Assembly (NCBI GenBank): GCA_010356995.1
Contig: ML996688.1
Span: forward strand, 1,524,579 to 1,588,578
Source of the DNA: Trichodelitschia bisporula
Taxonomy: Eukaryota
Reading direction: 5' to 3'
Length of the DNA stretch: 64,000 bases
Shown: positions 1 through 49,336 of the stretch, one piece after another
Layout of the letters: each line of letters opens with the position of its first letter
Position numbering within the stretch: the stretch's first letter is position 1
Position numbers and translations under genes: made by a program
Notes under the pieces: generated by a model
The model's database searches: none
Told to the model about the DNA's origin: nothing
The model's input: the letters and a program-made list of their open reading frames with translations, nothing else

Positions 1-403
1 ATGTGGAGTTGGTGAGGAGCTTGGTTGGGAAGGGGGAGGAGTATCGGGATCCGAGTTTGCCTTAAGCGCCGTGGGGCCATGACAACAGACGGAGGCTCGA
101 TTCCCCCTCGCTTGCGACCGGAATCCTCGAAGCGGCAACACCAGAAACGGGTGTCGGAACGTCGAGGCTACATCAGCTGTAGCTCGACAAGCCATTTGGG
201 CTCGGCAGAAGACGAGCATCCCGGAGCGCTGAGGACGGCCGGATGGCAACTTTATCGAGGACAATCAGATCACCTGGCGCTGCCGCAGCGACCAGGGCAA
301 AGAACATGATCCATGAGCGAACAGCTAGGAAGCATATAGGAACATGGAATACCAGTCAAAGTATCCAATACAGCCAATTTAAACCCACCAGACAATCAGA
401 CAT

Positions 404-1491
404 CTACAACTTCGCCCCCATAAACTCCAAATTCACCGGCGTCAACGCCTTCCCGGTCTCAAAGAACGCCAATATGTTCTCAATCCCCAGCTTCTCAAAC
501 CCAATATGGCTCTCCAGGCTCGCCCCCGCCGTATGGCTCAGCAGCAACACATTATCCATCCCTGCCAACTCCGGGTTAATATTCGGCTCATCAAAATGCA
601 CATCCAAACCCGCCGCCACAATCTGCCCACTCCGCAACGCTCCCACCAGCGCCCCCTCATCCACCAGCTTCCCCCTCGCAATATTCACAAACCGCGCCCC
701 GGGCTTCATCGCCGCAAATCGCAGCGCACACATCACCTTCTCCCCCGCAAACGGCGTGGCCAGCAACACGCAATCCGCCTCCGCTAGCATGGCGTCCAAC
801 TCGGCGTAGTACGTCGCCTCGAGCGGAACCTCGACCGCGGGATCCATACGGCGGACATCATTATACAGCACCCGCATATGGCACGCCGCGCGCGCCTTCT
901 GCGCCACCCGCACGCCTATCCTTCCCAACCCGATTATCCCCAAAGTGTGTCCGTTGGGGTTATGCGTACTCGCTGCGATATTCCGATTCGCATCCCAGAA
1001 GCGCGCGGGGTCGCAGGAACGTGCGGACGCAGCGCTCCACCCGAAGTTGCGGAATGTGTGGAGGATGAGCCACAGCGCGGCGTCGGCGACGCTCTCCGTG
1101 CAGGCGGCGGCGCTGTTGCAGTAGAGGATGTTGCGCGAGGCGAGGGCGCGCGTGTCGACCCAGTCGAAGCCGGCGCCGGCGGAGGTGAAGATGCGGCAGG
1201 TGGGGGGTAGGAGGGCGCTGGGGGGTTAGGGGTGGAGCTGGGAGGGGAGGGGGGGGGGCGAGGGGAGTACATGAGCTCCTCGTCCCAGTTGCCCATTTCG
1301 CCGCCTGTGTTCCAGAAGGGGCGGTACATGGCGGCGAAGTCACCGAATTGGTGTGTCTCCAGAGCACGCTTGAATTCGGCTCGTGGCATGCTGTGGCTGC
1401 GGACGATGGTGAAGCGGGTTTGGAGGAGGGCGTAGAGGTCATGGTTCCAGCGGATGTCGTCGCCGAGGTGGAGAATGGTGGGTTTAGCCAT
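404..1491 (-). CDS. D-isomer-specific 2-hydroxyacid dehydrogenase (glyoxylate reductase-like), 2 exons
   Basis: Exon 1 MAKPTILHLG... (1491-1271), intron 1270-1218 (GTACTC...CTAAC...CAG), then an in-frame exon with SAGAGFDWVD, Rossmann GIIGLGRIG, FVNIARG, AGLDVHFDEP and LLSHTAG. Confidence 0.92.
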
Positions 1492-2939
1492 GATGAGGCG
1501 TGGGATTGAAGGAATTGGGGATGTTCGTGGTGAGGGGAGCTCGTGGAGGAGATCACCAGATAGAAAGCCGGCTTATGCGTGCCAGCGTGGCGGTTCATGC
1601 AGGCGTGGTACAGATGCAGGTACCGCGAACCATGGGCGAGTCGTTCGTGTCATAGCTTACTCATGGGAAAAGAAGCGAGCGGTATGGCTCATCGGGTGGT
1701 ATCGAAGTGATAAGGCGGTGGAGATCATAGTTCAGCAGATAATGCGACTATCCTGGACGTCGGCCGTAGTGTAATGACCGTTATCGGAGACGAACAGAAT
1801 GCAAGGCAAAGGCGGTCGCTAGATGTTCGTTCTCTACATTGTGGATACTACTATGTATGCTCAAGTTAGCTATGTACAAGAAAAGATGCCATCATCGTTT
1901 ACTGAATGTCTTTCCAAAAGATGCCCTACGTAGTTGAGAAAGGGCACGGTGTTGAAGTCCGTTGTGCTTAGTCATCTTCGCTAAAGAGGCGACATAAAAG
2001 CTCTCCATTGCAGCTTCTTCTCCTCTTCTTTTCTTCATCAATTTGAAAGTTGAACAACCCAGAAAATTTGACGTCGATGATCTCCCACCTGATTTCGGCG
2101 TTGTATTAGCTGGGGAGAAGAACCGATTCTTCAAAAGAAGCGAGGGGACCTTTGGCTTGACCTGCGACTTCCGTGAGGATCGAACATCCCTTTGTTACTG
2201 GCATGTGGTGAGTGTGCCGATATGGCTTTGCGGTAGTTAGGCTTTTGTCTGTGTCGGCTCTCTGCTGCTGGCAGTCGGTGTGTCCTCTGTGTGTACGCAG
2301 ATGCAGTAGTACAGCGAGTGCAAAGAGACCAAAGTGGGCTTAAAGGCCGAGTTGTTCGGAGAGCTGCACACCACCATTGGGCCATGGGCATCTACCCGGC
2401 TCTTGTGGATCGTGGACTCCCGGAATCGCTTGCTTTGCAGTACCCAGATGCCGATGCTGAAGGCCAGCTGTATTTAAGTTGCCCTTGAGTTGCTTGATAT
2501 CTCCTGTGGCGACATTTGATATGAGGCGCTCCGGCTAAGCTGAATCTCTCCAACTTCCCCTTTTCAACTCGCCCTTCCAGACTACCAAACCGTGAGCAAC
2601 AGTTGTGACCAGAAACAAGTCTCCCAACTGCCCCGCATCCCGAAGATCAGAACTCGGTAGCCAGCCATTCGCACATCACGGCAAACTCGATCGGCCTGCG
2701 CGTGCCAATACCTTGTTCCGCAAGCGATTCCGCTCCCAACGCCAGCCAAGCCCTATTGGCCGACCATCCGTCCCCCGTGTTCCACGCCGTCGCCAACATT
2801 CATCTCAAACCCTCCCCTAACCCTCCCCATCGCCACCACAACAACGCTCCTTTGATCCAACACTCCTCCCTTTGATGTCTACAACCTAACCCCTAATCCC
2901 ACCTCTCAATCTTGAACTCAAGTTCGAAACCGCGTTACC

Positions 2940-4746
2940 ATGGCAGGCTCCGAAGCCCCCCTCCTCCGGCGCTCCTCCGACCGGCAATCCACCGACGAAG
3001 ACGAATCCCTCCTCACCGGCGAACACACGCACAAAGCCGAGCAGCGCAACTGGTCCTTCTACCGCACCATCGGCCTCGCAACATGGGCCTCCCTCGCCAC
3101 CGCCGCCGTCATCATCCTCTCCGTCCTCGTGCACAACCAGCGCGCTTCTACCAAACCCCCCTCCCTCGCCTCCAAGCGCAACCTCGTCATGATGGTCTCG
3201 GACGGCATGGGGCCTACGAGTCTATCGCTGACGCGCAGTTACAAGCAGTACGCGCACGGCACCGGGTGGGGGGATAAACTCGCGCTGGATCCGCATTTGA
3301 TCGGGCAGAGCCGCACGCGCTCGACGTCGAGTTTGGTCACGGACAGCGCGGCGGGGGCGACGGCGTTTAGCTGTGGGTTTAAGAGCTATAATGGCGCGAT
3401 TGCGGTGCTGCCCGATCACACGGCGTGCGGGACTGTGCTTGAGGCTGCGAAGAAAGCCGGGTACATGACGGGCCTGGTGGTCACGACGCGGATCACAGAC
3501 GCGACGCCCGCGTGTTTTGCGTCGCATGTGAATATGCGGTCTGAGGAGGATCGGATTGCGGAGCAGCTCGCGGGGTACTATCCGCTGGGTCGGGTTGTGG
3601 ATCTGATTATCGGCGGGGGGAGGTGCCATTTCCTGCCAAATGCGACGGAGGGGAGCTGTCGCGATGATGGGAAGGATGTGATTGCCATGGCGCGGGAGAA
3701 AGGGTTCAATTATGTCGGTGACCGTGCGGGATTCGATGCGCTCAAGCAGGGCAAGGATGTGCAACTCCCGCTGCTCGCGCTGCTCGCGGACACGGATATC
3801 CCCTACGAGATCGACCGCCGGAACGAAGACGACGTCTACCCTTCGCTCAAGGAAATGGCCCTCACCGCGTTGAATGCGCTGAGCGCTGCGACGAAGGATA
3901 GCAAGAAGGGGTTTTTCCTCATGGTGGAGGGCAGCCGGATCGACCACGCGGGCCATGCGAATGATCCCGCGGCGCAGGTGCACGAGGTGCTGTCCTACGA
4001 CGATACCTTCGCGGCCGTCGTGGATTTCGTCAAGAAGGACAAGACGCAGGGCGTAGTCGTCGGCACGAGCGACCACGAGACCGGCGGGCTGGCCGTTGCG
4101 CGGCGTACGTCCCCTTCCCCCCTTATACACAATAACTAACCACCCTCCAGAGCTCCACCCGACCTACCCCGAGTACCTCTGGTACCCCGGCGTACTCACC
4201 AACGTGTCACACTCCGCCGAGCGGCTCGGACAGGAATACTTCGCGCACCTCAGCTCCTCCGCCTCGTCCCCGAAATCCGACCTCACGAAATGGGTCCAGA
4301 ATCTAGTGACCACCGAGCTGGGAATCCACGATGCGTCGGATGAAGAAATACGCCTGCTCGTCGAGCAGCCGGATAACGCGCCGTATGCGTTTGCGGATAT
4401 GGTGTCCCGGCGCGCGCAGACGGGGTGGAGTACGCATGGGCACAGTGCGGCGGATGTTAATATCTATGCCAGCAACGCCGCCGATGTGCCTGCCCTGGTG
4501 GGGAATCATGAGAATACTGAGGTTGGGGAGTTTTTGCACAGGTATTTGGATGTGGATGTTGAGGCGATCACGCGCGAGCTGAGCGCTGCGGGGCCGGAGT
4601 GGGAGACGGTCGATGCGCAGGGTGTGAAGGTTGGGTGGTTGGGAAGACTGCCGAATGATGGGGAGAGGCTGGATGGGCAGGATCATGTGGATCATTATAA
4701 GGGAGATTATAAGAAGCATAAGAGGTGTGAGATCTGTGGGTTGTAG
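2940..4746 (+). CDS. PHO8: Vacuolar-type alkaline phosphatase (type II membrane anchor), 2 exons
   Basis: N-terminal TM segment. Motifs MMVSDGMG, VTDSAAGATA (catalytic Ser), EGSRIDHAGHAND, TSDHETGG and THGHSAADV. Intron 4105-4150 (GTACGT...CTAAC...CAG) joins the two ORFs. Confidence 0.95.
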
Positions 4747-20105: not shown

Positions 20106-21234
20106 CTAATTGACCAGCTTGCCATAAAACGGCAACCCAATGCTCGACAGCAGCAACCGTGCCTCCTTATCATTCTTCGCCGTCGTATGCACCGTAATAT
20201 GCATCCCAGGAATCATTTTCGGCGGGTACCTGCAAACACATTAGCCCCGTCCCAACCACCCCCATCCTCCCCAAAAACTCACATATCATAATTAACCTCC
20301 ACCTCCGGAAACAACGCCACCCCCTCCGCCCCAATCCCAAACGAAATATTCCCCGTACTATCCCCACTACTCCCCTTCAACCCCCTCCACTCCTTAATCC
20401 GCGGCAGCACTATCTCCACCACCTTCGCCAGAAAGTTATGCATATCCTCGCCCCTAAGATCCGCGGTCACGCTTACGTACCGCCCCGCCTTGAGGCCCCA
20501 TTGCAAGATACTATTTCGCGCGCGGTGTGTCTCGGCCCGTACGTTGGTCACCGCCTGCACCACCATCCCCGCAACATGCAGATACGCGCTGTCCTTTATC
20601 GCCTCCGACGCCATCGTGTGCACCGTCACCCGCTCTATCTTCGGCACGTTCCGAAATGTAATCGGCGCGTGCAGCGGGAGCAACACTGCGTTTCCCTTCG
20701 GTGCGCGCAACGGCCGCCCCGCGAAGTACGGCGACTCGCCTTCCCAGCTTCGCAACCGCTGGCCTACGGGCCCGCGTTGCTGGCCAAGGGGTACGTGGGT
20801 GTATGTTTGGGCGAGCATGTCGGGTGCAATGGTGCTGGTGTATGTTTGCGCGAGGCGCGGGAGGGAGAAGGGGCCGGGGACGAAGAGACGGGAGGACGGG
20901 TCTGAGGGGGGGGGAGGTTGGTGCGGGTGGAGGGGGCCGCGGTAGAATTTGGGGGAGCGGAAGCGGTATCTGGGATGTTAGATGGGAAGTTGATGGGGGA
21001 GGATGGCGGGACGGACCTGCTGGCGGGCAGCTGCTTGGGCCGCGCGCGCGATTGTCCCACGGGATTGAATTCTGAGGCGTCGCGGGGGGGAGGAGTGAAG
21101 GAGGTCGGCTCGAGGTCGGCGTCGTCGGCGGCGGCGGAGCTGTATGTGCGGTTTGAGGGGGAGGGGCGGAGACAGCTTGTGCAGGTTGAGCGGGCGAGGC
21201 GCCGGAGCGCGGTGGGCGCTTCGCGGAGGGCCAT
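20106..21234 (-). CDS. MRPL7: Mitochondrial large-subunit ribosomal protein uL5m, 3 exons
   Basis: Arg/Ser-rich presequence. Introns 21016-20970 and 20282-20230 give YRFRSPKFYRGPLHP, SSGDSTGNISFG, FPEVEVNYDMYP and C-terminal ARLLLSSIGLPFYGKLVN-stop. Confidence 0.92.
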
Positions 21235-23358
21235 TGGGGAGGAATTGGCGGGGAGATGTTGGTGATGGTGGTGTTGGTGTGGAGTTGAAGATTTCCGTTT
21301 GGGATGTGGTCTGTGCGTGGATGGGGGGCGTGATTGGGTGGTGGGGGGGTTTTGCTTGACGACGGACGAGATGGGAGAAAATGTTCAGTGCTTCCTTTGA
21401 TAGTTCGTTGGAGTTTGGGCATAGAAGTAGTAGGGACTTTCATTCTGAACTATGTGGATTGCTTGTTTCTATCCAATTGTCTACAGTTCAAAGACTGTAC
21501 GAACAGTGGGAGCGCGCTTTGGATGTACGGAGGAGACGCATGTAGCTACTCTTCCTCCGGTGAAGGATTCCTTCGAGAGAAGCTTGATACAAGTCCAGAA
21601 TACTCATACCCTGCGAGTGCCCGGCCTTGCTGCAGTTCGTAGTGAATTAGGCAAGTGGTAGAGCATGGTGGCCGAAATGGGTTCATGCGTCCAACCTCAC
21701 TTGGAACAGATACGAGGCGAGCACAAACGATGCTGCCTGTCCGTATTCATGTCAATGCCGTGAATGTCTCGTGGATGTGGCGCCAATACGGTAAGCTGAG
21801 ATGCACTGCTGTTGAGAAACTTGTTTTCCAACTGCCGTGCCGACGTTCGGCGAACAAACATAAGGCTAATCCTCAGTCCACTTGAGCCTCCGAGATATCT
21901 GCACCAAGTCCGAGACGCGTTGCCTGATGGGCATAACCTGCAGGATAAGTACGGTACGGTCTGCCACGAACGTGGAATAAAAACCGGCCAACGATAGCCA
22001 GGAGTAGCTAGACGGAGAATTCATGCTTCAGTTAGATCTCCTTACCCACGGTCTGGAACCCAGACCAAACCGAATCCTGGCGGCACATCCGACTTTCTCG
22101 GCAAGGAGAAAATCCATCAACCACAGGCACTGCGCCGGGTGGGTCGCATCGCCACAGGCATCCGAATAAAAGCAAGGCTCGGCAGCTGCTTTGGCTTAAC
22201 ATAATCAGGCAACGGCATTTTTCGTAATCGGAGCGGCCCGTAGCTCAGGACGGCACACGTAACCTTACCGTAGTGGTCTCGCCACCTGATGCGGCTGCTA
22301 ACTAGGCGACACCGGAAGCGAAAGAATTGTCCGGCGCCGACAAAAGTTGAGCGGCACAGGTGACCGGCCATGGCGTGGGGTCGTTGGGATGACGCAGGCC
22401 TTGACAAAGACACGGAGTTTGGAGTTTACTGATGCTCCGAAAGCCTTTCGCCGCATCGTGAGGAGGGGGGTTAGGTTATCCATGGCGGCGCAGAATGACG
22501 TGAAAGGGGGGAGACGGACTGCCTGTCAAAAGTGTGAAGAACGCTGGGATATGCCTTCTTGTCGGCGAAAGATCTGCGACGCCGTGCTCTACCACCTGTT
22601 CAACCTGGTGCAGGGCTGGGCGCTAGAGATGGTAGTGTGCATACTGCTAGCCAATGTACTGTAGGCCGCAGCGGGGTTGGTCGTGGGTTTGCGGTAGTCT
22701 ACTGCGTAGGATGGAGAACTTTGGGGAGCTGAGGAGAGGGGTGGGAGCAGACTGGGGTGACGTTGATAGGGGAGGGGGATGTGAAGGATTCGGGGAAGAA
22801 GAAAGAGGATGTTGCATTTCGAGGGGCATTTGGGGGAGTTGCCTGGCCTCAGCTTTCACTGCACTAAGGTTATTGCCGGAACTTCAAGTGGCCAGATCAA
22901 CAAAGATCTTCAACCACAGCCTACAACCTATTTCTCACCACCTAAAAACTTCCCTAGTTTGTGTAGTTTAGCGGAGGGAAATAAGGACGGACATTCAACA
23001 ACCCCCACCAACACCCCCCCCCCCCCGCGATACAACGTACGCGCCCAGCCTTTTTGACGTCGCCTTCCCTAATTTCGCCTCTCCCGCCGCTCTCCACACC
23101 CCGAACCCGCGACTCTTGATCTGCTTAGGCTCTCAGCCTCTCCTCATCTCCCCAACCGCTTCCTCTTCTTCATCTTCTTTTTACCCAGCTCATACTTCCT
23201 GCAAAAGTATACCAGCAAAAGCTTCTCTCCCATTCAATCCATCCATCGCGTCTCTCCACTCGACTCGACTCGACTCTTCTCTACCCCAGCCCCCCACCTC
23301 ATCTCCCCCCGCACCTTCGACCTAACCCCATGGACGCGCCCTTTGCTCCGCCCATATC

Positions 23359-25843
23359 ATGAACACCGTTACGAGGTTTCTTAGCAAGCGGGAGAAGAAA
23401 CACAAGGACCACTCGCACGACAAGGTATGCTCCAGTGCCTGCAAATAGCCGTCACCTGCGTCGATCCCCCAGCTAGCTCTCACATGCCATTGCTAACGTC
23501 GGCTCGCGCTTTGGTTGTAGCCACACGTTCATAAGGACCTCTACCGCATATTCCACCTCGATGACTCTGCCAGCTCCATCCGCCGCAAGCTCGACCGTGA
23601 TGAAGAGAAGAAGATTAAGACGGTGCTGCAGCGCCTAGAGCAGCACAACATCACGGACCTAAAGGACGCTCAAGTCGAATACGCCCTTCGTTCCAAGGCA
23701 TCTGATGGCGATTGTGACAAGGCGTTTGAGCTCTTGCTGCTCTTCCAGGATGCGCTGCATGGCGTTGTGCGTCCACTTGACATGGAAATGAAGCTGTTGG
23801 GTGCAGAGAACCGCGAAAACGTGACCTGCTATATCGACTCGCTGCTGTTCGCCATGTTTGCGCGTACCGACAGCTTCGATACCATGCTGACAGCCGAGAG
23901 GGATGGTGATCTGAGGCGGCTCGTGACACTTCTGCGGTTGTGGGTCAACATGCTGCGTACGGGAAAGTTGATCACGGTTGACATTGTAAGCGCCGTTAGC
24001 ATCTTGTAACTCTTGTCTCTAACCCCTCCCTAGACCAAACACATGCAAGATGCTCTCGGCGCCTGTGGTTGGGAAGAAGCCTCTCTCCTGCGCCAGCAGG
24101 ACGTCTCCGAAGCCTTCGCCTTCATCACGGGCAAGCTGAACCTGCCGCTCCTCACTCTTAAAATGGATGTCTACCATACGGGCAAGGAGGACAAGGATGA
24201 TCACCGCATCGTCCGCGAACGCCTCCTCGAGGTTGCCATCCCTCCTCCGCCCACCGATGGCAGTGCCGTCAAGCTCGAGGACTGCCTCGAGTCGTACTTC
24301 AACAACAAGATCGAGGTGAAGCGGCACCTGCAGCGCCGCAACACGCTGCAGTCCGTGCGTGCGTCCGATATTAAGAAGGTCAACGTCGCACAGGTCGAAC
24401 ACCTGGAGCTGCGCTCCAATTCGCCCAGTAGGACGCTGGATCGCCACTTTTTCCCCAGGGATACTAACGACCTGGCAGCGAGCATCTTCAGCCAGCGTCA
24501 TGTTGATGTTGGCGAGCTGGTGGAGAAGCGTACGCGCGACGACATGCTGCTCAATTCCCGCACACGCTCTGGAACCATTAGGCGGGAGGTCCTGATGCCG
24601 GCCTGGCAGTTCTTCAGCCTTATCCGTTTGTCTTTCCCGCCTGCACTCGTCATATGAAGCCTCGCTAACCTCCCACTCAGCATGGTACACGCAAAACCGA
24701 CCCCAAAACGACGAGCAAGTCGTCGCCCATCTCTCCACAAAGCGGCCAGTGCTCGGCATCTGCCTCAAGCGGTACAGCATGACCCCCGAAGGCGTCGGCA
24801 CCCGGCTGGACACCTATATCGACATCCCCCTCGAAATCGGCCTCCCACACTTCATATCCGACTCCAACGGCGACTCCTCCTACGAACCCTCCTTTACCAA
24901 CTTCAAACTCAGCCTGCAATCCGTCATCTGCCACCGCGGCAAATCCCTCGATGCGGGGCACTACATATCCCTTGTCCGCGGACCCCCCTCCGGCGCCGCC
25001 TGGCTGCGCTTTGACGACCTGGCCCGCGAGCGTGTGACACCCGTCGATATGCCCGAAGCGCTCCGCGCTGAATGCCCCTATCTCCTTTTCTACCAGGTCG
25101 TCCCCATTGACGCCAACGGCGCTTGGATCGAGGACCCGCCAGCGTATGAGACGCTAAAGCACACCTTCGCGGGCACCAACGGCACCGCCGTTCCGCAGGA
25201 TGCTGTCACCGACACCACTGAATCCGCCGTCGATACGGCCTCCGAATCCTCGGGCCCGGTGGGCGGGTTAACCGTCGTTGTCGCGTCCGCCAGCGCACCG
25301 GATACATCTTCTCCCACAGAGCGCGGCTTACTGTCTCCGGGAAAGAACAGCAGCGCGCCCGAGAGCCCCAGCGCGCGCGCCGAACAGCCGGGAGAAGCGG
25401 GCGTCCGCCCATATAGTCTCGATCTTGGCCATTTGGTCGCGAACAACTTATCCGAACGCCGCGTGAGCATCGGCTTCACGGACGGTCCATCCCCGGCCGA
25501 AACACCCGACAGCGGGGCCGGGACACCCAGCGAGGAGCGGACGAGTTTCCTGGGGGTGGGGACTAGGGCGGGGCGCGGGTGGCGGAGGGCGAGGAGTGGG
25601 CAGCGGGCGCGGAGTGGGACGCGCGAGGGCGGGATGTGGAAGTTGAGTAAGAAGAGTAAGGAGAATGGGGATGTGGCGGTTGAGGATGGGGAGGATGGGG
25701 ACGTTGGTGGGGGGAAGGAGAAGGGTGTTAGGAGGGGGAGGTCCTTGATGCATCCGAAGAAAGTGCTTAAGAGTGGGAGTTTTTCCTATGGGAGTGGGAA
25801 TGGGAGTGGCGGGGAATTGGAGAGGCAGTGTGTTGTTATGTAG
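23359..25843 (+). CDS. Ubiquitin-specific protease (peptidase C19, CYLD-like Cys box) with C-terminal CaaX, 4 exons
   Basis: Introns 23425-23520, 23986-24033 and 24626-24680 all keep frame. Cys box NVTCYIDSLLFAMF, QQDVSEAF, CLKRY, His box CHRG...AGHY...WLRFDD and YLLFY. Ends CVVM-stop. Confidence 0.9.
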
Positions 25844-26149
25844 GTTTTTCTCTTGGCAAGGGAGAAGGGGGGGGTGAAAATGGGCGGCGTTGATGGTGCG
25901 ACGGTAAAAGGCATGGATAACGGATGACCGGCGTTTTGGCGGGTTACTGGGTAATATGGTATGGTGGGGGATTCTGATACGGGGTTTGTTCTGCATTGGG
26001 CGGGCGGATGGGGCACGTTCGGCGTGTGGTGGGTGGTGTTCAGGCGACGGTGGTGTATTGATAGACTGGCGGGTATGAGTGCCCGAATGAATGGACGCTT
26101 TGCGATGTCAAGGTTTGCGCTGCGTGGTCCGGTGTTCACGTCGATGTTT

Positions 26150-26697
26150 TTACCCGACATTCACGATATCCAACATCAGGTACCCGATACTGACTCACTG
26201 TTACCCACCACTGACCCCAGTTACTCAGTACTGACCAAAATTACCCGGTGCTGGCTACGGTTACCCAGCATGGCAACATACCCGGCTTTGACGACGTTAC
26301 CCGGCACTTGTCCTGCACCCACGACGCCCGGCACTCACGATACCCGGCACTCACAACATACCGGGCATTCACGACCTGCGCCCTCCGATGTGGACACGGA
26401 AGGAGCATTATTATGTCAGGAAGGAGCATACTAACGGACATGATGTAATGAGCGCATGATAGAAGGAAAGGAGCAAAGGAAGATACTAGGCATCGTGTAT
26501 TTTTAAGTCTTGGGAGCCTCTTCTTCTCTTCCTCTCTTCGTCTTCTACTTTCAATCTTCACTTTCCACAGTTGCCGTTGCCTGTGTATGAGCTTTGCGCT
26601 CATCAGATACCCGGCACTGACAACATACCCGGGCATCGGCGATATACCCGGCATTCACGACATCCACCTCAAAACTAGTTACCCGGGACCCACGTAC
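26150..26697. repeat. Degenerate 18-20-bp minisatellite, consensus approximately TTACCCGGCACTSACRACA, in two blocks
   Basis: Units at about 26150, 26181, 26201, 26221, 26241, 26261, 26279, 26297, 26327, 26341 and 26359, then about 26608, 26626, 26645 and 26679. Confidence 0.85.
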
Positions 26698-27008
26698 AGC
26701 ACATGACCAGAAGTACCGTCGATCAAGCATCCATTGCCTACCCGACCCTTGCGGGCAGCTGCCTATCTATCCCCCTACCCCTATACCCGCCCGGCTACGT
26801 AGGAAAAACTATCCATACATCCCCCCAGGTCCAGCCGAGCCAAAACCCAGATAGATACCAGGAAATCTAACGAGCGTATCTCCCCCCCAACCCAAACTTC
26901 CCAAACCTCCCAATCCAAATCCCCCCCCCCCCCCCCCAAAAAAAAAGAAAAACACCGCGCCAGACTCCCTCCCTTGGAGTAGCCCAGACGCCGGCTGGGT
27001 ATCATCCA

Positions 27009-29675
27009 CTACATAACAACGCACTTAAACCCCCCCTCCTTCCCTTCCTTCCCCCTAGGCGCCTCCACCCTCTCCGCCATCACCGCAACCGCAGCCTCCC
27101 CCCTCCGTCCACGCTCATTCCGCCACCACCCGCCCCGACGATCACCCTGCCCCTGCCCCTGTGCCTGCCCTTGCAGCGGCAGGTGCGCCTCACTCCCCCC
27201 CTGGCCCAAACTCGCCAACCTCGTCCCGGCCCTCCGTCCACCCACCGTCGTCTGCCTCCTCGCATCACCCGGCCCGGCACGGCTGCGCATCGGGCTCAGC
27301 GGGCTGCCGGTGCTGGTACTCGGTCTCCGCGCGATCCTGCCCGGCGGCGCACTAGCCTGCTGCACGCCCCCACCCATCTGTCCCAACCCCCCGACACTCG
27401 CGGGTCGACTCGCGCCCAGCATGGAGGGGGGCCGTTCGCGCGGCGCCACAGGTGAAGAGGGCAGGCTGTGCGTCGCCCTCGACGCGCGCAGAGGCGGTGG
27501 TATGAGCAGCGGGGGTTGCTGAGGGCGGGATGACATCTGCGGGCGGAAAGTGCGGCTCAACCGATTCTCCCTCGGGCCGGGGTTAAACGCCGTAGCCAGC
27601 GGCTGCGCCATCGGCGGCTGTGCTTGCGCCTGCGGAATAGAAAGCGGATGCGCCAAATGCCCACCCACAACCCCCACCCCCACCGCCTGCACCCCCGCAA
27701 TCCCCACCGCCCCCGCCTCAGGCTCAGCACTATACGGCGGTGGCGGCGGGACCCAGTTATCCGCGTCGCTCTCGTGGGGCATTTCGCGCAGGCCGTCTGC
27801 GCGGCGGTACTCGAGGGGTCGTTCCGGGAGCGCGCGTAGGTGGGTTCGGTTTGCAGTTGCGGCGACGGTGGCGGCGCGGTGCAGGCTGAAGTGTGAGCGC
27901 GGTTGGGCGTTGGCGTAGGGCTCGTCGAGGGGGGGGATGGGGCCGTCCTCGTCCGGGATGAGGGGGAGGGTGTTGTCGTCTGTGGTTGAGACGGAGCTGA
28001 GGCTGCGCCGGCGCCGGGAGGGGTGCGTGTGGGAGTCGGAGGAGAGGGCGAGGTCGCGCAGGGTTACGATGGAGGCATTGCGCGCGGAGCCGGAGGAGAG
28101 GCTCCTCCTGGGCCGATCGCGTGGCCCTGGGGAATGCTCGGGGCGCGAGCGGTGTATTTGCGTCCGGCGGCGCACGAGGTCGACTTCCCGCTCTAGCTCG
28201 AGCTGTTCGTCACCCAGCGCCTCGGTCGGCACCAGGTCGTCGAGGGAGAGGGTGAGGGTTGCCGGGGGAGACGGCGGGGCGGAGCTAAAGTCTATGAGGA
28301 GGATTTTGCCGCTGGCCGTCGGCGCGACGGTGGGGACCACGTCCTCGGGCATAGCAAGGGTGACGGTGCTGAGCAGCGCGATGAGGCGCTGCGTCGGTCC
28401 CGTCGGGGGCTGCAGCCAGCGGACGCAGGTGAGGAGTTCAGCGGGGGCGGCTTCGTCCTTGGGCGGGAGGGGCGCGCGCTGGCAGGGCGTGAGGGCGGGG
28501 ATGTCGCCTGCGGAGGAGGGGGAGGTAGGCGAGGCGTCGTCGCGCCAGGAGGGTGGGATGCGATACACCCATATTTCTTTACTGCTTTTCAGGCGCACGG
28601 CGACGGCGGCGCTCCGCCCGTCGCTGGATATAGCGGGCAAGGGGTCTTCGGGCCGCTCCGAGCGGCCCCAGCGTACGTCGGGGGGGGGGTCGAGTTTTTT
28701 AGAGCTGAAGCGCTTGGCTGTCATGTCGAAGACAGCGAAGCGCGCGGCTTGCGCGTCGTACGCGAGGAGCTCGTTTGTAGGCCCCGGGCCGGATTCGGGC
28801 AGGAAGGCGGCCTGGCGCGCGGCGAAGCGCTCAGGGAAGAGCAGTTGCGAGATCCAGATTTTGCCGAGGGGGGGGGGGGCGGCGATGATGTCTTCGTTGA
28901 AGGTATCCTCTAGCGCGCTGTCGATGGATATCACGGTTGATTGGCGGCAGCGACGCGCGGGGCCAGTGATGAGCAGCGAGCGGCCGTCTTCGGAGAAGGA
29001 GAGCGTTTCTACGGCCCCGCTGTTTATGTGTCGTTTGTCTGTTTCGAGACACCCCGGGCTCAGGTTGCAGATCTCGATCCCGCCGTCCGACCCTGCGGCT
29101 ACGGCGTCGCCGGCGCTGGAGAGGGCTAAGGCTTTGGCTTCGTTGTTCAGGTATACGGTGTGGAGCTTGCGGTTTGGGGCGGTCAAGATATCCACGCCGC
29201 CGTCGCCGCACTGGTAGACGTCGATTTTGTGAGGCGTGGTTAGGACGGCGAAGCGCCCTGTGTCGGTGATGGCGACGGCGAGGGGTTTGCGGCGTATGCG
29301 GAAGACGCGGCAGTGGTTCTTGTAGTCGGGTAGATGCGCGGCGGAGAGCACGTAGAGGACGGAGGAGCTGTAGGCTACGACCCACCGGCCCTTTGGTGAG
29401 ATGCTCAGACCGAAGGATTCGGGGAAGGCGCTTGAGGTGGCGGTTATGGAGACTAGGGATATGGTTGTTGTGTGGGGGGTGAGGGCGGGGAGATCGGGCG
29501 CTGTGAGGGGGTTTAGGGATGTTGAGGTTGAGGAGCTGGTGGGGGACATGTCGATGGTGTCGGTGGGGGAGAGGGAGTGTAGCGACGTCGACGTCGCGGT
29601 GGCCATGAGGGCGTACTTGTCCGTGTCGGGGCCATCGCAGTGGGGAGACAGAGGGGGTGGATTCGTTGAGTCCAT
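27009..29675 (-). CDS. WD40-like beta-propeller protein with disordered C-terminus, PPPY motif and CaaX
   Basis: Intronless 888-aa ORF with blade-like segments LSISPKGRWVVA, VAITDTGRFAV, LALSSAGDAVAAG, LSFSEDGRSLLI and AISSDGRSAAV. Contains WVPPPPPY and ends KCVVM-stop. Confidence 0.8.
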   Translation of the reverse strand: MDSTNPPPLSPHCDGPDTDKYALMATATSTSLHSLSPTDTIDMSPTSSSTSTSLNPLTAPDLPALTPHTTTISLVSITATSSAFPESFGLSISPKGRWVVAYSSSVLYVLSAAHLPDYKNHCRVFRIRRKPLAVAITDTGRFAVLTTPHKIDVYQCGDGGVDILTAPNRKLHTVYLNNEAKALALSSAGDAVAAGSDGGIEICNLSPGCLETDKRHINSGAVETLSFSEDGRSLLITGPARRCRQSTVISIDSALEDTFNEDIIAAPPPLGKIWISQLLFPERFAARQAAFLPESGPGPTNELLAYDAQAARFAVFDMTAKRFSSKKLDPPPDVRWGRSERPEDPLPAISSDGRSAAVAVRLKSSKEIWVYRIPPSWRDDASPTSPSSAGDIPALTPCQRAPLPPKDEAAPAELLTCVRWLQPPTGPTQRLIALLSTVTLAMPEDVVPTVAPTASGKILLIDFSSAPPSPPATLTLSLDDLVPTEALGDEQLELEREVDLVRRRTQIHRSRPEHSPGPRDRPRRSLSSGSARNASIVTLRDLALSSDSHTHPSRRRRSLSSVSTTDDNTLPLIPDEDGPIPPLDEPYANAQPRSHFSLHRAATVAATANRTHLRALPERPLEYRRADGLREMPHESDADNWVPPPPPYSAEPEAGAVGIAGVQAVGVGVVGGHLAHPLSIPQAQAQPPMAQPLATAFNPGPRENRLSRTFRPQMSSRPQQPPLLIPPPLRASRATHSLPSSPVAPRERPPSMLGASRPASVGGLGQMGGGVQQASAPPGRIARRPSTSTGSPLSPMRSRAGPGDARRQTTVGGRRAGTRLASLGQGGSEAHLPLQGQAQGQGQGDRRGGWWRNERGRRGEAAVAVMAERVEAPRGKEGKEGGFKCVVM

Positions 29676-30263
29676 TGGGGGCGGGCTAGGACATTGTGGA
29701 GGTCGTCATTGATGGGGGATTTGTGCGGGGAGGGTAGAGTTGCTGTAGGCTGCGTGGTCAGCGAGGCTGCGTAAAGGACTACGTCGCGGACATCGAGTAG
29801 GCCAGTTGGTCGCTGAGGCAGTAGAAGCGGTGTCCCCAACGAAAGGGGGAGGGGGGGGCGAGGCTGATGATGTTGGCGGCGTTGGAAGGTTGTCGATTCG
29901 ATTGCTGACAAGCTGTGTGGTTCGGCTCTCTCCGTTCCGTATCTCTCTTGCGGAGGAGTGAGAGTGAGGGAGAAAGAGGAGGGAAGGACAAAGCAGGGTG
30001 AGCGAGGGTTGAGGCGAGCGCCGATCTGGGGGGGCTATTATTAGCATCATCGCCCACACTCATCTGCCTTGGGTTTGGCGTCGACATCATAAATTAACTG
30101 CTCAAACACCATAGCACTAGCCACACTTGCGCGTCACTAGCCACAGTTAGGGGGATCACCGAGTTCCGCTTTGGGATGGATGTTCACCGCTCCATTACGG
30201 ATGTGCAGTTAAAGATAAACGACAGAAATCCTACAGCTCCGATCGCTCTATGACCTTACCAGC

Positions 30264-31514
30264 CTACCCCCCCCCCCCCCCATCATCCCCAGTAACGTGC
30301 AAAAGAAACAATCTCCCCTCACTAATCTCACACCCCACCCCAAGCAGTTCCCATCTACTCCCCGCACTGACCCCAACCTCCTCCATAACAGGTAACAAAT
30401 CCTCCCTCCCCACATCCGTAACATAAACATCCCCCCCCCGCACCTTACTCCTCCCCACCCTCTTCAACCGCCCATTCTCCACTGCCGCCGCAGCAACAAG
30501 ATCAAACAACCCCCCCTTCTGCTCGCGCCTCTTCTCCGCCCTCACCCTCGCCTCCTGCGCTTTGTCCGCCATCCCAGCAGCTGGGTTCTGGGCTACGATC
30601 CAGAACATCCACGTCGGCGTCCCCTCCTCGTCGTTCATGATCACGGGCTCCGTGCGCGGCGCACCCGGGGAGGGGAGCGGGTCGAGACTCGCTGCGAGCG
30701 CTGCGGCCTGCGCGCGTGGGTCTACGTCGCCGAATTCGCCCCGCAAGCCGCGGTGCCCCGGGTATTGATGTCTGCCACCGGGTAGATTGCCCCATTGACC
30801 ACGCGGGCTGGGGTCGCGCGGGCGAGGCCGGCCGCCGAGATTCATGTTCCCGAATTGCCGATCCAAGTCAGCGCCGGCACGGCCGCGGGGCTGCTCGTCG
30901 AAGTCGGGGTCGAAGTCGCCCTCTATCTCATCTTCCCTATCCCGGCCGTCATCTTCGGCCCCTTCCTCTCCCTCCCCTTCATCCCCCCAATCCTCACCCT
31001 CCTGTCCTCGCGGCGGCGCACCAGGCTGATTCCCCACGCCCTGCCCAAGCCCTCCCCGCGGCCCCACACCACGCTGATTCCCCACCCCCCCCCCAACCCT
31101 CTCCGCCATACCCACAGGAACGTACCCGCGCTGTCTATCCAGCCCAAACCGCGCCCCCGGCGGCGCAAACGGAGGCATACGGCGCACACCCGGCGGCCTC
31201 CCCGCCTCCACCTCCCGTATCGTGTGCCGCACCACCTCCATACTCCGAACTCGCCACGCGTCCCACTCCGCGGACATGCGCGGCGGGAGCATTGCCCGCA
31301 GCGTCACCATCACTTGGTGGATAGCGTCGAAGGCGGCGTTTTGGCGGATGATGTAGAGGACGTAGCCGGGCTCACCTGGGTTCGGGAGGGGCGTGGTGGC
31401 GATGGTGAGGAGGGTTTGCAGGGCGTCTTGGGCGGCGTTGAGATGTGGGGCTAGGGCGGCCAGGGGGGGGGCGAGACGGCGGGCGTGCCGTATTTCGGCG
31501 GGTTGGCGGTACAT
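30264..31514 (-). CDS. Hypothetical protein with helical N-terminus and Gly/Arg-rich and acidic low-complexity middle
   Basis: Long open frame whose first ATG is at 31514 (MYRQPAEIRH...). No family recognised. Confidence 0.55.
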   Translation of the reverse strand: MYRQPAEIRHARRLAPPLAALAPHLNAAQDALQTLLTIATTPLPNPGEPGYVLYIIRQNAAFDAIHQVMVTLRAMLPPRMSAEWDAWRVRSMEVVRHTIREVEAGRPPGVRRMPPFAPPGARFGLDRQRGYVPVGMAERVGGGVGNQRGVGPRGGLGQGVGNQPGAPPRGQEGEDWGDEGEGEEGAEDDGRDREDEIEGDFDPDFDEQPRGRAGADLDRQFGNMNLGGRPRPRDPSPRGQWGNLPGGRHQYPGHRGLRGEFGDVDPRAQAAALAASLDPLPSPGAPRTEPVIMNDEEGTPTWMFWIVAQNPAAGMADKAQEARVRAEKRREQKGGLFDLVAAAAVENGRLKRVGRSKVRGGDVYVTDVGREDLLPVMEEVGVSAGSRWELLGVGCEISEGRLFLLHVTGDDGGGGG

Positions 31515-32170
31515 TGTTGCGGGGGGTGGGTGGGGGTGTGTTAAGGTGTGCTCGGGAGGTCGTTGTTGGCTGTTGTTGGGCCTTTCGCCTCGTTGGATGG
31601 GCAAATGGCGCCCTTGGTCTGGAGTGAGTTTCCGCTTTTGCACCCCTTAAGAGAAGGAGCTCTCACTATCGAGCCTGTGTTCAGGCGATCCTGGTCGCCG
31701 CCTGCCGTACTCGTACCACTCAGGTTCAATCCTGAGCTCCACGCGTACTTGAACGTTGATTTTGTAGTTTGCGGGAAATCGTTGAGGTTGGCGGTCATGA
31801 AGGTAGCCTCGTGATCTGGTTCGTAGAAACTTGGGGTCAGGTGCCGCCATCTTGCCGGCCTTTTATACCCCGTGGGCTGTGAATGTATGCTGGATGAATG
31901 TACTTCCTCTGCGCAGTGAAAAACAAGGCCTATCGTGAAAGCCGGTACAGTGGATTGCACTTGCAAGAAGAGATGGGAATAATTAGTTTGTCGTAGAGAC
32001 CGGGAAGCCGTCACTTTTATAACTCCTGCCGCCTAGACGACTAGCACCCAGTTTGGAAAGACGCAGAAAGTAGGACAATCGGAATATGAGCAATTATGTC
32101 TGCTACTTCCGAAACATCCCGTCCAAAGCAGAGTGCGTCGTTTGGCTTCTGAGTGCAGCTGCACTCCTCT

Positions 32171-33933
32171 TTATTCCTCCTGCTGGCGCATATGGGTAGG
32201 TAAATTCCAGCTAGAGTAATCCAGATGCACAAACGCGCGGTCGACGTACGGCACGCTCTCAAGAACATACTGCAGGCTCTCACCCAGGTCGTGGCTGTCG
32301 CGCAGATTCATATTTTCGTCCAGGACCACGTCGACCTCGACAATCAGCTTGTCGCCGCCGTGGTAAGCCTGCAAGCCTTGGATCTGCTTGATTGTCTTCG
32401 CGAAGCGCATCGTCAAGTACAGAAGTACATTCCGCTCGTCTGCGGTTGCGGCGGCGCCGGAGAGGTTGCGAATGTGAGTGAGTGTCGTGTGTGACCAGGC
32501 GAAGATGACATACAGGGCGAGCAGGATGCCGCCGAGTGAATCGAGCCACCAGATGCGCGCATAATAGCCAACTACAGGCGTTAATACTGCTCCTGATCCG
32601 GATGAATTTACTCACCAAGTGGGAATATGATACTGAAGGTGTTGAACACCACGTCAGTTGCCGCATCCTGCGCCAATGCTTGCACGCTGCTGTTGTTGAT
32701 CAAGCGACACCACAGCCAGCATCCGCCCTTGATAACAACTGTCGCGGCCATGATAGCAATCGCTGCAGGTGTGAGATTGACAATCTCGCCCTCACCCTTT
32801 GTTAACCGCGACAGACCCTCGAGTGCAACTTGGAAGAAGGATGTGATCATGATCACGCTGAACACCAGTACACCGATAGGCTCCAAGCGGCGCCGACCCG
32901 CGGGGTATCCGTGGTCATCGCGCTGCGATATGAGCCGTGTGGTGACCCACACAATAGCAGTAGACAGGAAGTCGAGCGCCGCGTCCACCATAGATGCAAG
33001 CACGGACACCGAGGACGTGAGTACCGCAACCATGACCTTCAGGACCAGTAAAATCGCATTGGCGGCCATGTTGCCGTAAATAGCCCAACGGACCACGGGC
33101 TCCGACCCGTCAACATCATCGTCTGGCACGTAGTCTGGCAGCGGGATGCGGTCCTCTTCTTCATCCTCGATATCCGTAGGCCGTATAAGTGGGGTGCTCT
33201 CGTCAGGGATTTTGTAGAGATTCTTTGGCGTACGCTTGAGGCGTGTGGCACTGCTGCTCTGCGGCATGCCATTCAGCTCGCTTTCGGGGGTGGGGAGCTC
33301 CAGCGGCGTGGGCAGCTCCTCATGGATAGTGGGGGGCACGCCGTTAGACGTGTTTGTGTACTCCTGGATCAGATCGTGCGGAAGCGAGGAGTCGAGCAGC
33401 TTGTCAATGTAGAGGTACTGCTGGATGAGGGTGTTGTTGCGCTCGTAGTACTCGCGGCTGCCATGAGATCAGTCGGGTGCAAAACGACAACTGTCTGGGC
33501 CAACTCACATGGGCTTCTTCATCCGCGAAAGCTCCTCCTCCGTCTTGAAGTACTGTTCCCAACGATATCGCGGATTCGAATACCCAATCAGCCGCTGACT
33601 GCGCATTTGAGGAGCCATGAGCGCGCGTGCACCATCGCTGGCCCTCCGCTCCACTTGCGGCATGCCCCACATCCACACGCCATCCTCAATACTGTCCCTC
33701 CTTCCTTCCTCTTCGTGTGCGGCGGCACCTGCCGCATGTCCGGGAAGGCGCAGAGCGCTCGAGTTGCGACGAATGCTGCCCCCTGGCGTGGCCAGCCCTT
33801 GCAGCAAGCCGGGCAAGTTCTGCCCGCGTGTGGATATGGGCCGTGGGAGGACATCTTCGCTGAGCTGAAGGAATGGTCTGGGTTGTGGGCGTTGGGGAGT
33901 TATGTCGGTTCGTGGAGAGGCTGGGCGGGACAT
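32171..33933 (-). CDS. Cation diffusion facilitator (Mn-CDF/MTP-like), 3 exons
   Basis: Introns 33508-33458 and 32615-32572. Motifs IREYYERNN, SVLASMVDAALDFLS, YPAGRRRLEPIG, ALAQDAATD, SHDLGESLQ and VDRAFVHLDY. DxxxD metal sites are typical of the Mn clade. Confidence 0.93.
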
Positions 33934-48217: not shown

Positions 48218-49336
48218 TTGAGTCTCCTAGCCTAGCTAGCAAGCATGGCGTCTGGGCGGGAAGAAAACTAACCAGACTAGAACTAGAACACTGAAGGTGG
48301 GAGAGGCCAGTTATGTGAACCATATAACTTCATCTATGCTAGGCTGGGGTTGTGCCACGGTGAGCGCACAGCGTGGGTCGCGGACCCCAAAGATGACGCG
48401 AGTCATTCCGCTGTTTAATGCAGCCAACCGGAGGCCTGGAGTCACAGCCTTGTCCATGCGCCGAAGGATTCGATCCTGCGGAAGGAATTGTCGAAGGAAG
48501 TGAGTGATAGAAATAATATCTTGATGATTGGTAATATGAGCTCCCAGAGCTCTTTGGAAGAAGGCTTGGGTTATATTGGTTGACTTTTCTGTTCAATTAC
48601 AAGAAGAACATTGAGACTCCGGCTTCGATGGGGTGCCGAAGTCACTTTCGGGAAGGCTCACTATTTCGTACTCCTGTTACCGACGTGAATAACTGAGCAG
48701 GACAACTGCTAGGAACAACGACAAGACGACAGGAACGAAAGGTAGGATAATGGAAGCATAGGCTTGACAAGGAGTAACGCCTACAGTGTGAAGTGGAAGA
48801 AGAGAAGAAGGAGAGTCAAGAGACGCTCGAGACTGAGGACACGACGTGGCACAGATCCTCCCATATTCCTTCCTTCCCGTCATGAGCACAGTATCATGTT
48901 CCTTCCTTCCATCGTGCGACACATTACGTCGTATGTGCCTTCCGTTGGCATGTCCCTTCCTGAGACTGACATGCTCCTTCCGACGGCAAGTATGATGTTC
49001 TGGTGCCTTAATGTCCTGTACGCCCAGGTGTCTACCCCATGGGAACGAAAGAAGGCTATCAACTTACACCCTTCACAGACATCAAGATGTAAATCGGTGT
49101 ATCGGTGGGATGTGGTGGATGGGCTTTTGTGAAGCTGGAAGAAGTGCGGAGAGTCCTGGATGTAGTCTTTGCTACGGGAGTGAGACATATGTAGTTGAAA
49201 GGTCAAGCTTCTCTCCATCATATCATACTGTAAAGCATGCTCCACTGCCCTTTCTTTAGCCAAGATCCTTGATTAAAATGATGATAAACTCAAAAGTGGC
49301 ATACCCAACATGTATCTATACAAGACAACCAACTCC

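Follow-up and report, generated by a model that had tools for sequence, protein, structure and literature searches.

Organisation of the locus and transcript support

The window, i.e. the whole 64,000-nt stretch of Trichodelitschia bisporula contig ML996688.1 that was analysed, carries a convergent gene pair: a gene for a ubiquitin-specific protease (USP, peptidase C19) on the forward strand (23359–25843) and a gene for a DUF7165 propeller protein on the reverse strand (27009–29675), with stop codons 1165 nt apart. The USP gene, which is delimited by contig joints, open frames and a Pfam UCH match (E = 4.8e-16), consists of the exons 23359–23424, 23521–23985, 24034–24427, 24479–24625 and 24681–25843. 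They are separated by GT..AG joints at 23425–23520, 23986–24033, 24428–24478 and 24626–24680, as found in the contigs of two runs, and no joint falls in the last exon. These two runs come from a single sample whose kind, "RNA?", is a guess, no run holding the locus being recorded as RNA. The USP product counts 744 amino acids, or 761 when intron 3 is retained; both forms are open, and exon 3 is identical to the corresponding part of the public protein KAF2404671.1 (P0043, 760 aa). This third intron (24428–24478) is a 51-nt, in-frame element with a GT..AG joint and a branch-point motif, and it is retained in the public gene model. Its joint depth is 1307 in run X1 vs. 175 in run X2, a difference which suggests that retention is optional. 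Contig depth in these runs is unsuited to ranking genes by expression. The intron sits within the variable insertion of the USP.

As for the propeller gene (P0001), it is a single exon of 888 codons with a Pfam PF23749 match (E = 6.6e-45), and contigs cover it gap-free over 27683–29998 and 26957–27635. Both gene ends were re-read from the sequence and correspond to those of the first-pass annotation: TGT GTT GTT ATG TAG on the forward strand up to 25843 for the USP, and TGC GTT GTT ATG TAG on the reverse strand down to 27009 for the propeller protein. Likewise, the PPAY of the USP (25136–25147) and the PPPPPY of the propeller protein (27732–27749) hold their positions. The contig 26957–27635 crosses the propeller stop unspliced, and both USP forms end in CVVM. 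The longest USP contig piece among those listed ends at 25814, 29 nt before the end of the stop codon. Over the six frames of the window, four of 2964 stop-terminated tetrapeptides have the CaaX pattern, and the remaining two close frames of only 9 and 5 codons.

The intergenic space contains a cluster of short degenerate repeats with a TACCC[GA]G core (26242–26690, forward strand), which lies outside both proteins and groups nine of the 13 forward-strand copies of the window. It is enclosed by a 15-nt inverted pair (26062–26076 and 26783–26797), loose contig ends are found at 26401–26550, and a 72% match occurs at 48903–48982. It is possibly a dispersed repeat and could mark a rearrangement site. 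No Rfam match was found within 22000–32000. Concerning the surroundings, the neighbours are a ribosomal L5-family gene (20282–20977) and a cation-efflux gene (32611–33468), both on the reverse strand. A 460-codon Gly/Pro/Arg-rich frame (30264–31646, reverse strand), partly covered by contigs and with no Pfam match, lies upstream of the propeller gene.

The USP, its catalytic residues and its family

The first-pass annotation had read the first gene as a CYLD-like deubiquitinase (DUB). The enzyme class is borne out by the Pfam UCH domain, the USP fold and a complete catalytic triad. The UCH domain was found in 30 of the 31 family members scanned, and the fold of the T. bisporula protein matches that of USP2 (Z 19.8, rmsd 3.7, 261 aligned residues), with a structure model of middling quality (mean pLDDT 54). 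The Cys box (23806–23835) contains the oxyanion Asn (23809–23811) and the catalytic Cys (23827–23829), while the His and Asp-Asp boxes (24953–25021; His at 24959–24961, Asp-Asp at 25013–25018) align with those of yeast Ubp8. Among 36 diverse family members, the Asn, Cys and His are invariant and the Asp-Asp pair nearly so. As judged from these residues, the catalytic machinery is intact and the protein is a predicted deubiquitinase.

Ahead of the Cys box there are only about 115 residues, which are helical. They include a three-helix bundle (residues ~47–100, 23596–23757) with helices at residues 47–62, 70–78 and 86–100 and a pLDDT of 87–95 over residues 51–100, and this bundle is kept as far as Pneumocystis. 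It resembles UBA/CUE domains by shape only: the name UBA was set aside, with no Pfam match and a sole fold match (Z 6.8) of the kind found as common background, and CUE appeared in one of 31 members in the Pfam scan, at E = 0.15.

The family, with its CaaX end, was found in Lipomyces (two proteins), Kockiozyma, Trichomonascus, Pneumocystis and Tuber, and these six named proteins, out of ten distant representatives looked up, place it in all three ascomycete subphyla. The Atlas holds a further, mostly Mucoromycota cluster for the USP (score 0.93). One public model, P0095 from Penicillium taxi (1730 aa), joins the USP to Pep3/Vps18; this fusion is probably a merged annotation of neighbouring genes.

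The narrower label of CYLD-like draws on a resemblance in the Cys box, over 27–56 residues (E = 0.18–0.3); among solved structures, the Cys-box piece matches CYLD and no other, at E = 0.26. The two proteins also have the common USP fold (Z 17.4, rmsd 4.0, 239 aligned residues). Searches with larger parts of the domain, however, gave CYLD no special place: it ranks 21st in the fold search (Z 17.4 vs. 19.8 for USP2) and third of four, at E = 0.18, with a profile of mostly N-terminal fragments, in which USP7 comes first (E = 0.076). With the 36-member diverse profile, led by USP35, USP1 and USP30, it falls outside the best 60 of 66 matches. The His box of the family is canonical, and nearer to those of Ubp8, USP35 and USP1 than to that of CYLD.

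The architecture differs as well. According to the accessible part of the source, CYLD carries N-terminal CAP-Gly domains (PMC8511506); Pfam scans of 31 family members found none. The approximately 20-residue insertion in box 6 of CYLD binds the proximal ubiquitin, as described in the available portion of PMC6462090. A long insertion after the catalytic Asp was not found in the family, the Asp-Asp and closing boxes being separated by 18–22 residues in 206 of 206 matches, just four residues longer than in Ubp8, if box 6 is equated with this stretch, as we infer. The fingers subdomain of CYLD is truncated, as far as the accessible sections of two reports go (PMC6462090, PMC10719079). In the fungal family, a conserved stretch of 38–39 residues was present in 200 of 200 USP matches, the model having a pLDDT below 50 at residues 212–238 and 292–362. 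As a whole, the family lacks both the CAP-Gly domains and the long post-Asp insertion of CYLD and adds a CaaX end and a PPxY motif. On these sequence comparisons, the first gene should be called a divergent fungal USP, and a preference for K63 or M1 chains should not be assumed.

The DUF7165 propeller protein

The second gene had been described as WD40-like, and its predicted model indeed contains a WD40-type beta-propeller (residues ~62–480, 28236–29492, reverse strand) of 29 strands, i.e. about seven blades, with a pLDDT mostly of 75–95. DUF7165 (PF23749) is assigned at 154 bits vs. a curated cut-off of 26.7 (E = 6.6e-45). In the fold search, many WD40 propellers were matched at Z 20–23 (20.5–23.4, 277–309 aligned residues), and a profile match to PkwA was obtained at E = 3.2e-09. 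PROPPINs (Atg18/Hsv2/WIPI) gave the top fold matches, but these were tied with other WD40 proteins. FRRG is the phosphoinositide-binding motif of PROPPINs, and the stretch corresponding to that of Atg18 keeps one Arg only; the PROPPIN assignment was rejected.

After residue 480, the model shows a disordered tail. Within it lies a near-invariant block of 65 residues (584–648, 27732–27926, reverse strand), defined by its invariant columns and ending in WVPPPPPY. The part of this block that precedes the PPxY, conserved to a greater degree than the propeller, has no Pfam match and is a likely second binding site. No homology between the USP and propeller families was found beyond the last 11 columns (probability 0.8%). 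A second DUF7165 cluster of the Atlas is named F-box domain-containing, an F-box being present in 15% of its members; propellers of the DUF7165 type may accordingly act with ubiquitin ligases of more than one sort.

Conservation of the CaaX ends

Farnesylation is signalled by a terminal Cys-a-a-X in which X is Met, Ser, Gln or Ala. The CVVM-stop of the USP (25829–25843, forward strand) and that of the propeller protein (27009–27023, reverse strand) both follow this rule, and within each family the CaaX end is conserved far beyond chance. Cys stands at position −4 in 220 of 227 USP relatives, this set being what remains of 260 pooled proteins once 33 without a closing box or a 60-residue tail are removed; among the 120 relatives listed, 105 end in Cys-x-x-x. 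The last residue of the 220 CaaX relatives is M in 195, S in 8, Q in 7, V in 5, A in 4 and I in 1. As for the propeller, the CaaX is present in 39 of 42 relatives found by a propeller-only query. It is also present in 111 of 125 proteins of the wider set, all 111 ending in M or Q and eight of the 14 exceptions being named partial. Of 71 metagenome loci, redundant ones included, in which the frame reaches a stop, 68 have it too. In both families the CaaX is kept although the tails hardly align, and both signals are under selection.

Two other points about these ends had to be corrected. The T. bisporula tails are hardly basic, the net charge over the 20 residues before the Cys being 0 and +1 for the USP and the propeller protein, vs. 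family medians of +3 and +4. A second Cys within 10 residues of the CaaX Cys was found in none of the 220 USP and none of the 111 propeller relatives. Membrane binding of the T. bisporula pair may consequently be weak, given tails that are not polybasic and have no second Cys. As to the tetrapeptide shared by the two genes, CVVM accounts for 19% of the ends in the USP family and 39% in the propeller family, or about 7% jointly; the USP and propeller ends are identical in one of 13 species pairs, that of T. bisporula, which is the level expected by chance.

Distribution of the PPxY motifs

The PPxY (WW-binding) motif of the USP, PPAY, is located about 13 residues past the catalytic domain. Conservation of PPxY holds in full for the propeller and partially for the USP. 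In the propeller family, the motif occurs in all 42 relatives of the propeller-only query, with an invariant Tyr and the right spacing; counts from later queries, which were built on the conserved block or its neighbour, are biased. In the USP family, it occurs within 60 residues of the domain end in 117 of 227 relatives, mostly 10–25 residues beyond the catalytic domain, vs. 0.35% in shuffled tails, and is beyond chance. Aspergillus (11 of 11 entries) and Penicillium (27 of 28) lack it, however, as do Pneumocystis and three Lipomycetaceae proteins, from which it follows that docking on Rsp5 cannot be essential to the USP family. In a divergent group of 22 USPs that includes Lipomyces and Trichomonascus, the usual site is empty and 12 members have a PPxY upstream of PAW (2.3% in shuffled sequences), a relocation that points to selection for a WW-binding site.

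In both proteins the motif lies in disordered surroundings (pLDDT < 50). Across the relatives, x is mostly Ser, Pro or Ala. These are the residues preferred at this position in Rsp5 substrates and in peptides selected by WW domains, according to the part of PMC1911201 that could be consulted; in the same part, all of more than 300 peptides selected by these domains had a PY motif, which is also found in 72% of high-confidence Rsp5 substrates. Since it further reports PPxY in about 4% of yeast proteins (PMC1911201), a single PPxY is weak evidence.

Gene linkage in other species

Both proteins are present in all 13 named species that yielded both, and the idea of a conserved, linked pair was not upheld: adjacency was found in none of the 12 named species other than T. 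bisporula and at none of 80 propeller loci. In 11 of the 12, the genes are on different contigs (or hundreds to thousands of accessions apart), namely in Tothia, Verruconis, Aulographum, Lineolata, Zopfia, Pseudovirgaria, Delitschia, Lojkania and Polyplosphaeria, in Venturia inaequalis (four accession series) and in Macrophomina (two). In Venturia effusa, both lie on one 2.87-Mb contig, 20 accessions apart. Linkage was judged here from contig sizes and accession numbers, and some contigs measure only 78–152 kb. Concerning the metagenome, seven USP queries, run against 80 of the 107 loci, detected no USP beside the propeller gene, the window control being strongly positive; a downstream flank of 4.5 kb or more was available at 32 loci, of which 23 are distinct, and no USP occurred in those 23.

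At two of the closest propeller loci (L002 and L003, 53% identity), the upstream neighbours are homologous to genes for a 2-hydroxyacid dehydrogenase and for an alkaline phosphatase. Those at L002:2078–7265 correspond to positions 183–4746 of the window (0.2–4.7 kb), 25 kb away from the propeller gene. Gene-order shuffling inside chromosome regions is a known pattern in Dothideomycetes, and the displacement of these neighbours fits it. With the orthologues unlinked, adjacency is no evidence of a module, and the side-by-side position of the two genes in T. bisporula is probably accidental.

Interpretation

The explanation that we favour, at somewhat better than even, is that the two proteins are independent of each other, that both are farnesylated and dock on WW domains within the Rsp5 membrane-ubiquitination system, and that gene shuffling made their genes neighbours. 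Both would be farnesylated and hence tethered to the cytosolic face of membranes, and both would bind a WW domain. The likeliest bearer of that domain is the Nedd4-type ligase Rsp5, whose counterpart in Aspergillus is HulA. The propeller protein could act as a lipid-anchored Rsp5 adaptor or substrate, its propeller picking the cargo, and the USP as a membrane-tethered editor that removes ubiquitin from Rsp5 cargo or adaptors, perhaps assisted by its N-terminal helical bundle. The tail-to-tail arrangement would be a by-product of shuffling within the chromosome region.

A more specific version, in which the farnesylated propeller adaptor and the farnesylated USP sit on different WW domains of one Rsp5 and mark and edit the same cargo, would make an undescribed membrane ubiquitin-editing unit of filamentous ascomycetes, with a pan-ascomycete USP arm reaching Pneumocystis and with the direct docking motif lost in Aspergillus and Penicillium; we regard it as improbable. 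A shared complex of the USP and the propeller protein is, in our estimate, of similarly small likelihood. Its prediction from USP residues 40–535 and propeller residues 62–512 scored 0.01 with a mark of 0.34 and counts neither way, alignments being unused and controls not folded.

That the two are true partners, a farnesylated USP and its farnesylated propeller cofactor meeting on Rsp5 with genes that are usually unlinked, is a rather unlikely alternative on balance. The same two signals stand on both proteins, which co-occur wherever both were recovered, and contigs of one sample cover both genes. Genes for eukaryotic protein partners are seldom linked, so that the scattered orthologues are compatible with partnership. 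The taxonomic ranges nevertheless appear to diverge, the USP reaching Pneumocystis and yeasts, whereas all named propeller matches, among the best 120 of 432 listed, are Dothideomycete. Moreover, the 21 sequence matches of the propeller and its best 50 matches by fold include neither WDR48 nor WDR20, and a cofactor that is itself lipid-anchored and itself carries a PY motif has no need of the USP.

Such a partnership would have precedents. The human USP46/USP12-WDR48-WDR20 complexes and Aspergillus CreB with its partner CreC likewise consist of a USP and a WD40-type propeller. USP46 and USP12 match the T. bisporula USP only weakly (E = 0.08–0.18), and the DUF7165 propeller has no listed match to WDR48 or WDR20. 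CreB is described as a USP in the part of PMC6627422 that was available.

It is about as doubtful that the CaaX ends function while the proline-tyrosine motifs have a partner other than Rsp5, either a different WW protein or an SH3 protein, or that the PPPPPY of the propeller protein is just the end of a longer conserved binding block. The propeller PPxY does close a 65-residue near-invariant block, far longer than a WW ligand, and entire genera have lost the motif of the USP. The invariant, correctly spaced Tyr of 42 of 42 propellers and the recurrence of the USP motif at different sites across lineages speak against such a role, as does the PY motif in every one of the more than 300 peptides selected by Rsp5 WW domains (PMC1911201, the accessible part). 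Finally, a selected, physically linked module with a CYLD-type, K63/M1-specific enzyme is very improbable: the genes are adjacent here and share a contig, 20 accessions apart, in V. effusa, and the Cys-box piece has CYLD as its sole match among solved structures (E = 0.26), but adjacency occurs in none of the 12 other named species and at none of the 23 distinct loci whose downstream flank reaches 4.5 kb, CYLD is 21st by fold, behind USP7 by the N-terminal profile and outside the best 60 of 66 matches, and the enzyme has neither CAP-Gly domains (31 members) nor a long post-Asp insertion.

Comparison with known systems

The pairing of two independent Rsp5-docking proteins can be set against the yeast system, in which the PY motif is a docking code, as it would be in both T. 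bisporula proteins. The yeast Rsp5 adaptors known so far resemble arrestins or span the membrane; the T. bisporula protein would instead be held by a prenyl group and recognise its targets through a propeller. Rsp5-Rup1-Ubp2 reportedly provides a DUB that opposes Rsp5; by comparison, the fungal DUB would be equipped with a PY motif and an anchor of its own. Yeast Gis4, a CaaX protein, may be a relative.

On the animal side, human USP32 has, like the fungal family, a USP domain followed by a C-terminal CAAX box. It differs by its length of 1604 aa and its EF-hands, DUSP and UBL, domains of which none was found in 31 members of the fungal family, and the CaaX ends of the two may be convergent. 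In the accessible part of PMC10485055, USP32 with its CAAX box is associated with membranes and endosomal traffic and is called the only such human DUB.

As for the literature, neither a publication on DUF7165 nor a paper on the CaaX or PPxY of either family was found in the literature searched, most subscription papers being outside it, and the consulted portions of three fungal DUB surveys (PMC6627422, PMC7804941, PMC9599802) gave no placement for the USP family. In each family the combination of lipid signal and PY motif is genuinely conserved, and it is undescribed in that literature. The pair itself is probably accidental, yet it brings to light two families from which clear predictions can be drawn and tested. 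If the lipid signal, seen from Pneumocystis to Dothideomycetes, acts as proposed, fungi would target a DUB to membranes in the same way as animals do with USP32. A prenylated PY-motif propeller, if true, would be an Rsp5 adaptor of an unusual sort and supply DUF7165 with its first function. Both would bear on transporter turnover in filamentous fungi and on fungal farnesyltransferase-dependent proteins.

A possible link to an already studied gene came from the qRT primers of Alternaria alternata Aaubp7. Its forward primer reads REESPYL in one frame, i.e. the closing box of the USP family, which is found exactly in 11 of 269 proteins and with at most one residue different in 56. For the reverse primer, five of seven residues fit at a place some 48 residues further downstream in the Curvularia orthologue, and none of the four control primers matched exactly (primers of five of the 13 genes were compared). 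AaUBP7 is credited with a DUSP domain in the accessible part of PMC12295320, which conflicts with the identification, as the USP family has none. With these primer matches, it is nonetheless likely enough that Aaubp7 is the Alternaria orthologue of the USP for it to be treated as a lead. Should the match be right, sporulation and germination phenotypes of a deletion are already on record: in the same available part of the report (PMC12295320), the Aaubp7 deletion reduces sporulation by more than half, brings germination below 80% and abolishes longitudinal septa, while the mutant is outside the set of slower-growing ones.
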